A stretch of DNA of 54,522 bases, the filler included, from Squatina squatina (lineage: Eukaryota), in assembly GCA_031763465.1 (NCBI GenBank). It is 2 parts of 2 records of this genome, joined end to end, with 100 filler letters (N's around TTAATTAATTAA, not from the genome) between each part and the next. Parts side by side here need not be neighbours in the genome. Positions count along the whole stretch, not along the records: positions 26,281 to 54,522 come from JARFOE010000219.1; 1 more part is not named here. One strand, given 5' to 3'. How positions within the stretch are numbered: the first letter of the stretch is position 1; the number at the start of each line of letters is the position of its first letter. The notes below the pieces were generated by a model that was not told where the DNA came from, ran no database searches, and worked only from the letters and a program-made list of their open reading frames with translations. A program made the position numbers and the translations under genes. This document shows, one piece after another, positions 17,632-54,522 of the stretch.

Positions 17632-18150
17632 TTTGGCGCTGGATGGTCCGTTGAACGTGGAGGCTGATGGGGTGAAGGTGAGGATAAGGGCAATGCTACG
17701 GTGGTTCTGGAAAGACTGGGAATGGGTGAGAGCAGAACTACGGGACATAGATTGGTGAAGGTCGAGGACCTGGTCGACAATGGGGGAGGGCAATGCTCGC
17801 TAAAGGGAAAAAAAAAACCTATGAGAACCGCTGGAATTGAAGGTGGTGTCATCAGAACAGATGCAACAGAGATGGAGAAACTGGCTGAAGGGAAATGAGT
17901 ACTTACAGGTAGCCAGGTGGGAGGAAGTGTAGTTCAGTTAGCTGTGGCAGTCACTGGGATTAGAGCATATCTTTGGCAGCAGCCCATCACCAGCAATAGA
18001 GACAGAGAGGTTGATAATAGGACGCGAAGGTTCGGAGATGGATCAAGATAAGCAGAGGGAAGTGTGGATATTGCAGGCACAGTGAATGACATTTTCTTGT
18101 TCATCACAAGAGCAGTAAATGGCACCGATACAGTCATCAATGTATACCTG
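17632..18150 (-). mobile_element. Penelope-like retroelement RT fragment (degenerate)
   Basis: Minus strand reads RYIDDCIGA..SISEPS..LSVSIAGD..DCHS*LNYTSSH..KYSFPFSQFLHLCCICSDDTT, which are Penelope-type RT/thumb motifs. Confidence 0.75.
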
Positions 18151-26180: not shown

Positions 26181-26280
26181 NNNNNNNNNNNNNNNNNNNN
26201 NNNNNNNNNNNNNNNNNNNNNNNNTTAATTAATTAANNNNNNNNNNNNNNNNNNNNNNNNNNNNNNNNNNNNNNNNNNNN
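26181..26280. other. Artificial contig/scaffold spacer (N44-TTAATTAATTAA-N44)
   Basis: A 12-mer with stops in all six frames, centred exactly in 100 positions. Confidence 0.95.
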
Positions 26281-46215: not shown

Positions 46216-48906
46216 GAAACTCCAGCGGCTGGCACTGGTTAAAAGAGGCCAAGTGTGCGAAGTTGGACGGTAGGGATATGCTCTTGGACCCAGTCCTTGA
46301 TCATCAATGTACTTAAACACTGAGACTATAGAGGACCAGCATGTTAGCAATATTTTCCCTATACAGTATTTTTTTTAATGTTACCAAAACACATAGAAAG
46401 GGTGCAATCATAATGCCAAAGAGAACTGTGTATGCGGATTCAATAAACTGACAAGACTTGGTAGATTTTATTTCACAAAATTTACACGTTCTTAGTTTCC
46501 TGAGGATGAGTTGTGAAGACTATTTATTGGTTTGAAGTCCACGCTCGTGGGATGTACCAGATCTGCTCCTGACACCGTTGGCAAAGCACGTACAGATTCA
46601 TTTCTGAATCGCTTCGTTGAACAACACACCTTCACTCGGATCCGCGTTAGGTGACCGTTTAACTGTGCCCTTTTCGCAGACCTAAATTGCAGTCATGACA
46701 ATAACAAATGGACTAGAAATAGCTTCCTTCCACAATATTACTTCAGTCCAAAATGTAGTATTTTTTAATGAAAATAACGAGAGCTCCTTGGTAAAATAAA
46801 AATGACCATGGTGTTCTTTTAGCCTTCCCTTACAGAGAGAAAATCGAATCAATCTCTTCGCATTTCACAAAATGTTCGTGCTTCTGACAAAAGTTCAAAT
46901 ATTACATTCTGGTTATTTAAAGAAGTAAAACGCCAAGGCCTGGTCTCTGATCAACCCTTCCCACCAATACTTTATAAAGGGCCAAGTAAACGGGCGCTTG
47001 CTCTGGTGGGGTTTCAATCTCCACAAAATTTCAGATGAAAATAAACGGCGCACAATTAGGCTAAAATAATTTCAAAACACTGAGCAAATCACGTCAAAGA
47101 AGGCGGTATATACAAAGTAAAAAGACAGACTATTTAGCTTTCATTAGACTATTTACACTTTGACTCCCCGATATGCGAGATTTTGAAGCACGTGTTGCCA
47201 GCCGCAGGTCCCAGTTTTCTCTCTCGTGCTGTATTTGGGACCCAGCTCACGGGCGGAGCGGCAAACTTCTTGCTGACGACAGAGAGAGAGAAAGGAGGGA
47301 GTCCAGAACTGTTCATTTTGTTCGGGTTAACATCCCTGCTCCAAAAGCTGTCCCGTTGCTAGGCGCTACAGAAAGCCAGCGCACAAGCTGAAGCTTCAGT
47401 TATTGATGACTTGGAGCGAGGGCTGTTGCCGGCTGCAAACTCCAAAAGAGGGTAACCCGAGGTACGTGATCTTGAATGCAAACTATTCTTCCATTCTGCA
47501 TTTTTACGACCTATCGCGACGGNNNNNNNNNNNNNNNNNNNNNNNNNNNNNNNNNNNNNNNNNNNNNNNNNNNNNNNNNNNNNNNNNNNNNNNNNNNNNN
47601 NNNNNNNNNNNNNNNNNNNNNNAAGAAGGACGAAGAATGCGTTTATTTACACCATTCCTCAAAGACGTCACACTACAGAGTAAATTCTACCTCAGGCTAA
47701 TTACATCTGCCACTTTCAGTCCGATTCGTCTCTTTCAGGGTAGGAATGTCGCTCAGCCTAATACCTTATTAAACAGACATTTGTTTAGATTTCTAAATGA
47801 ACAACAGACGGAAAGGTCCATCGCCCTTTATAGTCTGTCCACCATGTGGGGCTCAGATTGCAGCTCACATAACCGTGTAATTTAACGAATTGCCTGGGAT
47901 CAGGGCTGAATTCCCCAGAAATAATTTGTTTTTGGAATGCTACCGTTATTGATTGAGATAAGATATTTTGCTGGTCCAAAGGTTTGCTAACAGTGCTATC
48001 GCTAGACAGGCTGCCAGACCAACTATCTCTTTTACAGTTGACTGATTTACCGGAGTAATGCATTTTACCAATCGTTCCAACCTTTAGCATGTATTTCAGC
48101 AAGCCAATACTTAAATAAAATAAAAAAGACTTACTAAATTTGTAAAATAGATAATTATCAACCAGGAAGGCAAGGTGAATGCTGTGGCTGTCATCAAATA
48201 ATTAGTGGAAAAGATCATGCCCATCACTAATTACTGTTAATGGTCGCTCATGAAATAAGTAATAACATTCCTAAATATAGTCCATAATGAGAAAAATAAC
48301 TTGTTGGCTAAGTCGTGCAATTGTTGCACTGACACACCTGGTTCTGGCACACAAGGGTTTTATTCCAAAGTTAGCATTAAAAATTACTTATGGAGAACAT
48401 AGATTAGTATTAACATATTTGTGTCAACTATGGGCACAGATATATTACAAGTACTAGTTTAAGACTGTTGTCACGAGTGTTTACACATGCAGAGCTCTGC
48501 TCACTGATATCCAAATGTTAGTTCAATTCTAAATGTAATTGAAGAGCCAATGGGATAGTCAGTTCCTTGCCAACGTTAAAAAAAAATGTTACTTCTACAC
48601 CTTTTAATGTTGGAAACTGCCTGGAAACACTTTAAGGTTCGCTCCAAGCTAGTTAAATTAGACAGCATCCAGTGCAAAGGCAAAGTGGTGTCAAACTACC
48701 TGCAAAAGGTCTTTGGGCATAGAATGCTAGAATGGTACATCACAGAATGAAGCCATTCGGCCCATCATGCCTANNNNNNCAACACTTCCTCACTCACGCA
48801 GGCTCCATTCTATCTTCCTCACTGTACTTCAGCCAGAGTGCATCCGCGCTGGGATTTTATTTTGGGGGCAAGCTTTGATGTTGGTTTATTGTACTCTGCC
48901 TCCATG

Positions 48907-48978
48907 ATGTTAGGTACGGTGAAGATGGAAGGACACGAAGCTTCCGAGTGGAGCAGTTACTACGGGGAACCGCAGGAG
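48907..48978 (+). CDS. FOXA1: FOXA1 coding exon 1 (alternative in-frame ATG at 48904)
   Basis: [24 protein letters not shown] followed by [19 protein letters not shown] is FOXA1-type. Confidence 0.95.
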
Positions 48979-49638
48979 GTAAGTACAAGTAACAGTTGTA
49001 CCTTATTTTGAGGTGAGCGCTTGCGATCATCAACTAATAGGCATATTTCGAGCGCTGGATTAGTAAATGTCTTACTTTCAAGCCATATTTACAGCTCCTT
49101 GTTTTCAAAATTGGGACAGTGTTCAGTCGAAGTAACTCTAGCGGATGTTATGTGGGCGTTTATGGTGTCTCAAAATGAAGGGATACCAACCCGTAACGCT
49201 AATAAAACTCATTCGTTTTGTTCATTTGTGTACTCGATGCAGGAGGTTATGAACCAGCCTCAAAGTTATTGACCACGCGGTGGCAACAGAGAGGGGAGCT
49301 GGGAGCTGCCCGCTGCCGCCACACGGTTTATAGGACCGGCGAGAGATCAGAGGGGGAATCTTAACAAGTCATCACCAATAACCAGTAGCGCTATTGTATT
49401 TATTACTCTTATACCAGAGAGAAAGCTGCTGCAACTTTGTACTTTATATTAAGAGGCGTGGCTTTCTCACCTAATTTTACTTAAATGAGTCCGAAGGTTT
49501 TTTTTCCCCTCTCTATTAGCGTGTTGTAAAAGTTTCCCGTCAAAATAGCTGGTGACCAAAGTGTAGAGAGTTCTGAATAAAGAAAACAAAAGTTGCCATT
49601 CTGACCGGTCAGACTAAGATCTTCCTTTCATTGTGCAG

Positions 49639-50869
49639 GCCTATTCAGCGGTACCAGTGAACAGCATGAACCCGGGACTGGCCAACCTGAACAGCATGAA
49701 CACCTACATGAGCATGAACACCATGGGCTCCGGCNNNNNNNNNNNNNNNNNNNNNNNNNNNNNNNNNNNNNNNNNNNNNNNNNNNNNNNNNNNNNNNNNN
49801 NNNNNNNNNNNNNNNNNNNNNNNNNNNNNNNNNNNNNNNNNNNNNNNNNNNNNNNNNNNNNNNNNNNNNNNNNNNNNNNNNNNNNNNNNNNNNNNNNNNN
49901 NNNNNNNNNNNNNNNNNNNNNNNNNNNNNNNNNNNNNNNNNNNNNNNNNNNNNNNNNNNNNNNNNNNNNNNNNNNNNNNNNNNNNNNNNNNNNNNNNNNN
50001 NNNNNNNNNNNNNNNNNNNNNNNNNNNNNNNNNNNNNNNNNNNNNNNNNNNNNNNNNNNNNNNNNNNNNNNNNNNNNNNNNNNNNNNNNNNNNNNNNNNN
50101 NNNNNNNNNNNNNNNNNNNNNNNNNNNNNNNNNNNNNNNNNNNNNNNNNNNNNNNNNNNNNNNNNNNNNNNNNNNNNNNNNNNNNNNNNNNNNNNNNNNN
50201 NNNNNNNCCCGCTCGCCGGACAAGCCGGGCAAGGGCTCCTACTGGACGCTGCACCCCGACTCGGGCAACATGTTCGAGAACGGCTGCTACCTGCGGCGCC
50301 AGAAGCGCTTCAAGTGCGACAAGAAGTCGGCGCTGAAAGGTGGCGGCGGGGCGGCGGACGGAGGCAGGAAAGAGCCGGGCTCCTCCTCGTCCTCCTCGTC
50401 CTCCCCGACCGGCGGCACGGCCGCCCTCAGCGACTCCAACTCGGCCCCCAGCCCGGACCCAGCGCCGCCGCACCCTGACATCAAGCGGTCGCTCGGCTCG
50501 GCCTCGGCGTCGGCCGGCGGGGGCCCGCTCAGCCCGCACTCTCACCCGCAGCCGCACCCCGGGCACCCCCTGGGACCCATGTCGGCGGCCGACTCGCAGC
50601 AGGTCCACCAGCTGAAGGCCGACCCGCACTACTCCTTCAACCACCCCTTCTCCATCAACCACCTCCTGTCGTCCGAGCAGCAGCATCACCACAAGATGGA
50701 CTTGAAGGCCTACGAGCAGGCCATGCACTACTCCAGCTACGGGGGCAGCATGGCCAGCGGGCTGGCCCTCGGCTCAATGGGCAAGAGCGGCATGGAGCCC
50801 TCGGTCCTGGCCAGCGAAGCGTCCTATTACCAAGGTGTGTATTCCAGACCTGTTCTGAACACTTCCTAG
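49639..50869 (+). CDS. FOXA1: FOXA1 coding exon 2 (most of the forkhead domain in the gap 49735-50207)
   Basis: [29 protein letters not shown]..; [63 protein letters not shown]. The frame offset across the gap means the gap length is inexact. CpG-rich. Confidence 0.95.
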
Positions 50870-51329
50870 TCTTGCACCAAAAACAAAAGAAGCTAAAGCC
50901 GTCATATAATAAGAAACACTTTTCCCTCTTTGGGATTGCACCTTGCGTGCAAAGACTGTTACTTTATAACATTTATATATTAAATGTGGTATTTTTTTTG
51001 GACAAGATTTAAACAAAGAAAACATTAAATCTAGATTATTACCACCATTTAGAATGTTAATTAGGATTAATGAGAAATCATTGAGCACATTCCAAAGCAG
51101 TGTGTACCCTCGTCATGGAATGCTTCCTAGGAGGGGCACCAGAATGAACAACTATCAGACTGTTTACTTTTGTATGTTACTTTCGCATCAAAACAACGGA
51201 AGCATCATTGGGTCAATAATTAAGGAACCATATTTGGCCATCAAGAGAGATGGTCTCAACACTGAGTTCAACAATTTCAGATCATAACTACGGCTCCCGT
51301 TTTTTCAGACAGCAGCTGCTGGTAATGAC

Positions 51330-51630
51330 TCTGCGGTTGCCATTTACACCTCCTCTAGACTCATCTTTTGTTTCCTTTTTTGTCCCATTCCCACTCCCTT
51401 TTGCCTTGCACCATCATCCTTTTTGTCATTTAATCACTCCTGCCTTCCACCCGATCAGACATTCCCTTTTGTTCTTTCCATTGCCCCCTCCCTGTCTCTG
51501 TACTTGCTTAAAACCTGTTACAAAGATTACTTTTTCCAGTTCTGATGAAAGGTCATCAACCTGAAACGTTAACTGTTTTTCTCTCACCACAGCCTGACCT
51601 GCTGAATATTTCCAGCATTTTCTGTTTTTA
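51330..51630 (+). mobile_element. Penelope-like terminal (pLTR-type) repeat fragment
   Basis: Pyrimidine-rich body, then 'ttctgatgaaaggtcatcaacctgaaacgttaactg..cctgacctgctgaatatttccagcattttctgttttta'. Confidence 0.6.
51537..51575 (+). ncRNA. Minimal type I hammerhead ribozyme motif
   Basis: CAGTT-CTGATGA-A-AGGT(CATCA)ACCT-GAAA-CG-TT-AACTG. Both core boxes are present, with stem I (CAGTT/AACTG), stem II (AGGT/ACCT) and a palindromic ACGT in place of stem III. Confidence 0.65.
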
Positions 51631-52296
51631 CACAAGAGATGGTCTTCTATGGTTTCAGTTAATGTGGGTGGAAGACCCACTGTGAGATATTTAAATCCAA
51701 AAAGGACTTCAGTCCACATACAGACCTAGGCAACAGAAACACCTCTTCTAGTCAGTGAGATAAATGCAGAAACATTCTAAGCTGGTACACAGACGGGTAG
51801 AGCCTACAACAGAGGAAGATATGATCAGTTGGCTTCAAATTAGCTAGCTCAAAAGCAAGTTCCTGCCGAGAATGGACAGAGTTGAGTTTTGTTTTAAACT
51901 GCACAATAGGTACGAAAAAGATGAATCTCACTGAAAACTGAATTCTCATGTATTTTATAAATCAATTTGTTGGTTTACAATTCTATTTTGTCTTGCAATA
52001 GTGCTCTTCAGTCCACCTTCACGAAAAACAGGACATGGTGGCACACATACAATTACAGTAGCCTGTCCAAACTATGGTTCAATGGCATGCCCCATGACTG
52101 TCATACTATTATTTGGCTAGATATTGGGCTAAATGTGCACTTTGTATCATAAGTGATACAGGGTCTACTTAATGAGTGACTGGTGACATTGAACCCAAAA
52201 GAATATCTAATACAAGAGCTGTGAAATTTGTCCAAGCTCCTAGAGATGGCCCACTGTATGGGAGGGGATTCACTGTGCATACATAATTATGCATAC

Positions 52297-52626
52297 GGGT
52301 ACGGTAGCATAGTGGTCATGTTACTGGACTAGTGATCCAGAGGCCTGGACTAATGACCCAGAGACACGAGTTGAAATCCCATCATGGCAACTGGTGAATT
52401 TAAATTCAGTTAAAAGCAATCAATCAGGAATAAAAAGCTAGTATCAATATATGGTGACCATAAAACCCATGATTGTCGTAAAAACCCATCCGGTTCACTA
52501 ATGCCCTTCAGGGAAAGAAATCTGCCATCCTTACCTGGTCTGGCCTATGTATGACTCCAGACCCATAGCAATGTGGTTGACTCTTAACTGTCCTCTGAAA
52601 TGGCCTAGCAAGCCCCTCAGTTGTAT
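52297..52626 (+). mobile_element. tRNA-derived SINE
   Basis: A box TAGCATAGTGG (52305) and B-box-like GAGTTGAAATCCC (52368), followed by a body ending 'tgaaatggcctagcaagcccctcagttgta'. Confidence 0.7.
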
Positions 52627-54522
52627 TCAAAAAGGCAGATCATCNNNNNNNNNNNNNNNNNNNNNNNNNNNNNNNNNNNNNNNNNNNNNNNNNNNNNNNN
52701 NNNNNNNNNNNNNNNNNNNNNNNNNNNNNNNNNNNNNNNNNNNNCGCGTCCACTCAATATTTCCCAGTAGCTGCACACAAGTTGTGGCGATACAAAGATA
52801 TTGATCCAAGACTTGTCTTAACTACTGAAAAGATGAGCGGGGGGATGGAGGGTAAATAAAGTGAGCTGCTTGAAGAAAATAATTGTATGTTAATTTTATG
52901 AAACTGCTATGTCAAAGCTCTGTTGGACGCTGTGCAGTTTGAGAGAAGCAGGAAGGCCGTTTCTCTTGACTCGTTTTGCATGTTCATTTCAACTTATTTG
53001 CAAATACATTTTTAAAAGCGGGTTTATTACGAAAATGAACCAAATGTTACCTGCATCAGGAACTTCGAAAAGTTACCCTTCTATTCGTTCCATAATGCCA
53101 TTTAACTCTTATTTCCATCCAGTGTTAATGCACTTTCCCCCGTTTTTAGCTGTCCAGAAATGTTGGTGTTAGCATATAGCCAGGCGGGTTCTCACGGCTT
53201 TTCTCAATGTGCCTAATTTATTGCATGGTCTACTCTAGGTCCTTTCTAGTTTTAAGTTGTTTAAAAATAATAATGCAAATTACAAATGGAATTTAAGGAG
53301 TTGTTAATTTTGTATTTGTAATTCTATGAAAATGAATAAAANNNNNNNNNNNNNNNNNNNNNNNNNNNNNNNNNNNNNNNNNNNNNNNNNNNNNNNNNNN
53401 NNNNNNNNNNNNNNNNNNNNNNNNNNNNNNNNNNNNNNNNNNNNNNNNNNNNNNNNNNNNNNNNNNNNNNNNNNNNNNNNNNNNNNNNNNNNNNNNNNNN
53501 NNNNNNNNNNNNNNNNNNNNNNNNNNNNNNNNNNNNNNNNNNNNNNNNNNNNNNNNNNNNNNNNNNNNNNNNNNNNNNNNNNNNNNNNNNNNNNNNNNNN
53601 NNNNNNNNNNNNNNNNNNNNNNNNNNNNNNNNNNNNNNNNNNNNNNNNNNNNNNNNNNNNNNNNNNNNNNNNNNNNNNNNNNNNNNNNNNNNNNNNNNNN
53701 NNNNNNNNNNNNNNNNNNNNNNNNNNNNNNNNNNNNNNNNNNNNNNNNNNNNNNNNNNNNNNNNNNNNNNNNNNNNNNNNNNNNNNNNNNNNNNNNNNNN
53801 NNNNNNNNNNNNNNNNNNNNNNNNNNNNNNNNNNTTGTAGCATCCTTTATACAAATGGTTACGATTTCACTACAAAAAGCAAGCAGAAGAAATCTTTCCC
53901 GAGAATCTTTATGTATTGGTACCTTTGGTTAAGAAGACGTACAGAAGTCTGCTGTACTGTCATTGATATCACAAGATTCTGCAGCACTTGGGCGTTCCAT
54001 AGTGTTACAAGGAAACAGAAAATTTATCAAAGGGATCTGTAAACACTTAACAGCTGAGCAAGCATATGACAAAATGACATTTAATATTGTCAATTAAAAT
54101 TATCTGTGGGGTTGTTTCATTTTCATACATGAATGTCACTTCGTTGATCATTATTTCAGAAGCAGCGCGTCACGGATCCCTGTGTATTTTATCTCTACCG
54201 AAAAAAGCAGCGAGTTTGTTAACAGAAAAACAGGTTGCGAAATAAAACCAAACCGTGTGCATTATCACCGATAATTTATAAAGTCTGCACAGAACAGATA
54301 ACTACACCATGAAAACAGATTTGGCAGCCTGTTTCCTTTGTCACGCTGAGAACAAGTATAAAGTATTGTCTAATACAAATGCTACAATGTGTGACAGAAT
54401 TGCATTTCTTTGTATCTGGGTACAAAACACTTTGTAATTTCGACCCACACAAGTGGATTTTGGACATGAATAGCTTTTGCTTTGATCACTGATCACTGGC
54501 GGGACACACACATTGTCAGAGT

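Follow-up and report, generated by a model that had tools for sequence, protein, structure and literature searches.

The minimal hammerhead motif behind FOXA1 in Squatina squatina (positions 51537-51575 of the window, the whole 54,522-nucleotide stretch analysed here, filler included) is best read as inert pLTR cargo, the fossil of a Penelope-like retroelement, causing no meaningful cutting of FOXA1 mRNA whether or not that mRNA spans it; we give this reading a probability of about 0.85. The carrying fragment was probably inserted by 5'-truncated reverse transcription and would since have drifted neutrally, with no meaningful cleavage. As found, the motif, a decayed member of a published class with no fewer than 1,720 copies, matters little, and shark genomes hold about one intact-looking minimal hammerhead per Mb, so some land behind stop codons by chance. 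Trans-cleavage, if true, would amount to control of a host mRNA by repeat-derived dimeric ribozymes, a form of control that was not found in our literature search.

The motif and its repeat of origin

All mapped features lie on the plus strand. A 5-bp stem I (51537-51541 with 51571-51575) encloses the CUGAUGA core (51542-51548), one extra A (51549), a 4-bp stem II (51550-51553 with 51559-51562) around a 5-nt loop, and the GAAA core (51563-51566); C15.2-G16.2 (51567-51568) completes a palindromic ACGU, which stands in place of helix III, and U16.1-U17 (51569-51570) precedes the predicted cut between 51570 and 51571. The two cores, both stems, the extra A, the palindrome and a cut after 51570 had been proposed in the original prediction, and a descriptor search combined with a position check confirmed each at its place. 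The core CUGANGA, GAAA and UH are thus present in type I order together with helices I and II; the helix III loop is absent, positions 15.2-16.2 are palindromic, and the usual G10.1-C11.1 pair is also missing, A51550-U51562 standing there instead (an A10.1-U11.1 variant). An A-U pair at 10.1-11.1 reduces hammerhead activity, and GUC is cleaved better than the GUU triplet.

The motif sits within a fragment of about 380 bp (51257-51630, delimited by BLAST and paralogue alignment) that begins about 390 bases behind the FOXA1 stop codon, a repeat context that the original prediction had missed. The stretch common to the paralogues is 51251-51630, and BLAST matches start at 51251-51255, overlapping the left of two identical 11-bp direct repeats (51246-51256 and 51635-51645). 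Random window pairs at like spacing shared at least 11 bases in 19 of 2,423 cases, and the flanking repeats are likely, judged by their sequence and position, to be a target-site duplication. Translation of the fragment's 5' end (51255-51287) gives the closing 10 codons, with stop, of the RT/GIY-YIG open reading frame of the element, and longer paralogues extend 5' into a decayed version of the same frame.

The nature of that frame emerges from its homologues. A profile built from nine RT fragments retrieved 139 proteins of at least 722 residues, and the 120 listed are nearly all unnamed and mostly 720-1,000 residues long; most carry RVT_1 and some GIY-YIG. The C-terminal fragment of the family has a match in 112 of the 120, where its end lies at a median distance of 3 residues from the protein C-terminus, and it aligns at 40% to residues 703-800 of one of them (P0137), in which Pfam places GIY-YIG at 708-751. 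Direct Pfam scans of the decayed copies yielded RVT_1, below threshold, in 3 of the 8 scanned and GIY-YIG in none, and the latter domain was likewise not found in them by a homologue search with one endonuclease fragment or by PDB profile searches. Through its homologues, the family is nonetheless shown to possess a single frame encoding RT followed by a C-terminal GIY-YIG domain. The motif lies 3' of the frame in the window and at two further loci (L022 and L039), and a decayed motif lies 5' of it at L038, which gives the family as a whole a pLTR-ORF-pLTR layout. Because of this layout, the homology of the family frame and the terminal codons, 51257-51630 is assigned on sequence grounds as the 3' end (ORF tail plus pLTR) of a 5'-truncated Penelope-like element.

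Other traces of such elements were encountered. In the other record of the window, 17634-18144 is an internal piece of an RT region that lacks a hammerhead and is 70-73% identical to L022, L038 and L039; it belongs to the same Penelope-like family or a related one. At L012, L018, L026 and L050, a second, inverted pLTR piece lies near the main copy. A fold-back layout is known for Penelope insertions, and these inverted pieces resemble it.

Used as a query, 51300-51640 produced 9,131 candidates at first look, of which 40 were scored, namely the window and 39 paralogues 80-85% identical to its fragment. A descriptor comprising core, stems and palindrome matched the genome 1,720 times, or about 1.1 per Mb, with no match in the reversed control. 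Across these matches the 10.1-11.1 pair is G-C in 281, A-U in 421, A-C in 20 and, by subtraction, G-U in 998; A10.1 avoids C11.1 (Fisher p=5e-20), a value that may reflect few events since the copies are related. Such coupling fits pairing kept in the source elements, and the coexistence of G-C, G-U and A-U forms suggests either subfamilies or CpG decay in steps, compensated afterwards in those elements. Exact 32-mer counts, 153 for the motif against 46 for a control upstream and 2,365 for one downstream, were rejected as a genome-wide test of constraint, as they track subfamily sharing.

That the motif is a short AT-rich stretch bearing a merely accidental resemblance to a hammerhead has a negligible probability. 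In its favour, an Rfam search of 48000-54522 returned no hammerhead family at E<=10, and the 39-mer does not stand out in folding energy (z=-1.2); Rfam models presumably miss minimal hammerhead forms. Against it, the strict descriptor matches once in the window and not at all in 10 Mb of first-order Markov sequence, the coupling at 10.1/11.1 extends across the family, and the motif lies in a pLTR, as published for Penelope-like elements (PMC4209133). For the family, the simulated sequence and the pair counts refute a chance origin.

FOXA1 and its downstream region

The gene upstream is readable in its 3' part (50210-50869; Pfam HNF_C, E=2e-27), and translation places its stop codon, TAG, at 50867-50869. 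Eleven of its 12 best homologues are named chondrichthyan HNF3-alpha proteins and the twelfth is an unnamed catshark protein, at 60-75% identity, as against 49-53% to chondrichthyan FOXA2 among the matches listed. Sequence comparison therefore supports FOXA1 (HNF3-alpha) over FOXA2, and the latter was ruled out as the identity of the host gene. Read by eye, 48907-48978 is probably the first coding exon of FOXA1, with 24 codons and a GT donor directly after them. PF09354 has only 2 matches in the assembly; a second gene with an HNF3 C-terminal domain, on a 660-bp contig (L056, G000:C1055433:209-394), is probably another FoxA paralogue.

The join between the two records of the window falls at 26181, and all the sequence that follows the FOXA1 stop in the window is collinear with scaffold G000:C219, which bears N runs 3' of the SINE described below. 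The distance of about 670 nt originally given between the FOXA1 stop and the motif is borne out by the stop codon position and this collinearity, and the proposal that FOXA1 is followed, in the sense orientation, by a Penelope-type minimal hammerhead (type I) agrees with the descriptor, the family reading frame and the gene homology alike.

Hexamer searches returned candidate poly(A) signals on both sides of the insertion. Two variant ATTAAA hexamers lie upstream (50979-50984 and 51024-51029), and AATAAA occurs downstream at 52429, 52855 (52855-52860), 53335 (53335-53340, where an AU-rich stretch ends) and 54241, the last three on the same scaffold. Both ATTAAA positions and the place of the first AATAAA at 52429 had been correctly read in the original prediction, which overlooked the three more distal hexamers. 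The AATAAA at 52429 falls within a probable tRNA-derived SINE of approximate limits 52298-52644, a label taken over from the first reading of the sequence; its tRNA-like Rfam match (52298-52352) is under the gathering score (E=4.5), and 52427-52580 matches another genomic locus at 84%. Between the Penelope fragment and the SINE, weak matches elsewhere in the genome (68-83%, within 51910-52240) indicate older repeat remnants, and the region therefore tolerates insertions. We lean, as a matter of judgement, towards some FOXA1 mRNA isoform covering the motif, and its place in the FOXA1 3' UTR is a putative one.

Decay, predicted folding and possible partners

Divergence was assessed in an alignment of the window copy with 30 paralogues (29 loci from the first search together with L032; L033, being partial, was left out), which are best hits and hence biased towards similarity. 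Within 51300-51630, 34 of the 331 positions of the window copy carry a base other than the majority one (about 10%; the mean of the 31 copies is 8.8%). Its differences number 2 in the 39 positions of the motif and 36 in the 335 of the rest of the copy (p=0.40, a comparison of low power), and in the paralogues the corresponding figures are 105 of 1161 and 789 of 9014, i.e., equal decay inside and outside. The motif at the FOXA1 locus thus shows no significant excess conservation over its flanks, and all the family copies examined are decayed. Five of the 30 paralogues pass the full descriptor, so that an intact look is not rare. For the orthologous locus, no look-alike windows were found in other genomes, and a FOXA1 C-terminal pattern had no match in metagenome contigs.

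Two changes bear on the stems. G51558A, a CpG-type change, leaves stem II with 4 bp where it would otherwise have 5; because 9 of the 30 paralogues share it, it is common decay and no lesion special to the FOXA1 locus. Stem I has gained a fifth base pair through a private change at 51575, which is either a substitution or a slip of 2 nt.

In folding models, G51558A completes a 6-bp hairpin between the core UGAUGA and the stem II loop. The modelled probability of stem II is 0.19, 0.11 and 0.009 with 20, 60 and 100 nt of native flanks, respectively, against about 0.8 for the paralogue L023, and G-C type copies with 20-nt flanks reach 0.84-1.0 in 5 of 7 cases, with 0.19 and 0 in the other two. 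The competing hairpin, which buries the core, has a probability of 0.56-0.82 once the modelled context extends past the bare motif and is predicted to dominate over the weakened stem II. In element-only contexts, a hammerhead-shaped monomer is modelled as likelier in the window copy than in L023.

For dimers, the short homodimeric double hammerhead is less unfavourable in the window copy (+6.2 kcal/mol) than in L023 (+10.1 kcal/mol), and in a longer context the values are +13.1 and +16.6 kcal/mol. All modelled dimers are unfavourable, those of the G-C type included, so the model gives relative hints only and cannot show that the window copy is dead; absolute dimer energies were rejected as a test of activity on the same grounds. 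As for a partner in cis, BLAST and a relaxed descriptor alike turned up no second hammerhead, either in the window or across L034-L036 (the 30 kb surrounding FOXA1, 17-38% N), so that the readable flanks hold no partner. With neither a helix III nor a second motif nearby, the window motif cannot form three helices within one RNA, and a dimer would have to form in trans.

These data suggest how the motif might act in the element and fail behind FOXA1. In source elements it would cut pLTR-containing transcripts as a double hammerhead in which two ACGU palindromes supply helix III, possibly helped by the element's protein. The lone copy beside FOXA1 is unable to form helix III and would depend on another pLTR RNA in trans; the weakened stem II of this copy is predicted to lose to the core-burying hairpin.

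Cutting could still occur incidentally and without function, with a long FOXA1 UTR isoform being cleaved now and then, unselected, by a pLTR transcript or by the element's protein. This we regard as unlikely. The core, the palindrome and a 5-bp stem I are all present, the genome offers 1,720 potential partner motifs, and cofolding yields an intermolecular helix across the palindrome; however, that helix also pairs the cleavage-site nucleotide and so is not the active form, which lies at least about 12 kcal/mol above the cofold minimum for window-containing pairs. The decay of every family copy examined and the low activity published even for tethered dimers (PMC4209133) also speak against it.

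Considerably less probable is a co-opted control in which Penelope-derived hammerhead RNAs cut FOXA1 mRNA in trans, such that transposon expression lowers FOXA1. Equally improbable is its mechanistic form, in which a half-ribozyme in the FOXA1 3' UTR would serve as a sensor of transposon activity, cut only with pLTR RNA, and perhaps element protein, through trans-assembled double hammerheads. The sense orientation, a core intact despite 10% divergence, the private lengthening of stem I and the precedent of a hammerhead in the 3' UTR of mammalian Clec2 genes (PMC6155905) are compatible with such control. Nevertheless, chance alone should place about 11 sense motifs less than 1 kb behind a stop codon (by arithmetic, with 20,000 genes assumed), excess conservation is not significant, stem II is weakened and lacks G10.1-C11.1, and the Clec2 precedent has a different, type III architecture.

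Altogether, an inert pLTR fossil is favoured because there is no significant excess conservation, stem II is weakened, no partner was found in cis and published activity is low, while the intact core and palindrome (shared with 5 of 30 paralogues), the low power of the conservation test, the 5-bp stem I and a dimer less unfavourable than that of L023 count against it. Of the two outcomes entertained in the original prediction, the inert single copy is thus the better reading, and cleavage of FOXA1 mRNA in trans is disfavoured by the same four considerations together with the missing G10.1-C11.1 pair, the activity in question being low even for tethered dimers (PMC4209133).

Comparison with known systems

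The literature searched on Penelope, sharks and hammerhead ribozymes yielded no shark case, the word "shark" there referring to the shape of a motif. Among host genes a parallel is Clec2, whose 3' UTR carries a discontinuous, co-opted hammerhead in rodents and other mammals (PMC6155905). As there, the shark motif lies behind the stop codon of a vertebrate gene, but the Clec2 ribozyme belongs to type III, has a very long helix I and occurs in several mammals, whereas the shark motif is a minimal type I form that depends on a partner, derives clearly from a recent repeat and shows no significant constraint.

Non-LTR retrozymes carry PLE-related type I hammerheads in tandem arrays (PMC7229834), and in Xenopus the few exonic copies are reported to sit mostly in 3' UTRs (bioRxiv 10.64898/2026.07.22.740005). 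Unlike those tandem units, the shark fragment is a single copy of an ORF tail and pLTR with flanking direct repeats, and a retrozyme array was rejected as a reading of the locus, where only a single copy is present.

Also close is Poseidon of Anolis carolinensis (PAc), in which the hammerhead cut only with the element's protein, no RNA-seq reads ended at the site, and the ORF starts at stem II (PMC11167929). The shark motif resembles PAc in being a pLTR hammerhead with an ATG at the boundary of core and stem II; it differs in that the PAc protein is active in vitro and the shark copy is a 380-bp fossil (PMC11167929). The ATG in the hammerhead core (51544 onward) opens a frame of 57-58 codons in L023 and L038 and of 47 in the window, and may be the Penelope-like element's start codon. 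A further observation concerns the region 51520-51541, where a branch-point-like motif, a pyrimidine run and a CAG directly before the core occur in 16 of 30 paralogues, the window copy not among them. This acceptor-like arrangement is reminiscent of Penelope in Drosophila virilis, for which an intron ending at helix I has been reported (PMC4209133).

A close match is provided by the min-HHRs of Cervera and De la Pena (2014, PMC4209133), which are defined there by an extra nucleotide that separates positions 9 and 10.1, G10.1-C11.1 and a palindromic 15.2-16.2, the G10.1-C11.1 pair having emerged from the hits and lying outside the descriptor used. They number thousands per genome, mostly single, in the pLTRs of metazoan Penelope-like elements, and a single min-HHR gave no detectable cleavage, with dimers and trimers showing low activity (PMC4209133). 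Sharks receive no mention in the sections of that account available. The window motif shares with min-HHRs the type I order, the lack of a helix III loop, the palindromic 15.2-16.2, the one extra nucleotide, a 4-5-bp helix I, and a place in the terminal repeat of an RT/GIY-YIG element found mostly as dispersed, single, truncated copies (PMC4209133). It departs from them in carrying A10.1-U11.1 in place of the usual G-C, which 281 family copies retain, and from most of its own paralogues in a helix II of 4 rather than 5 bp.
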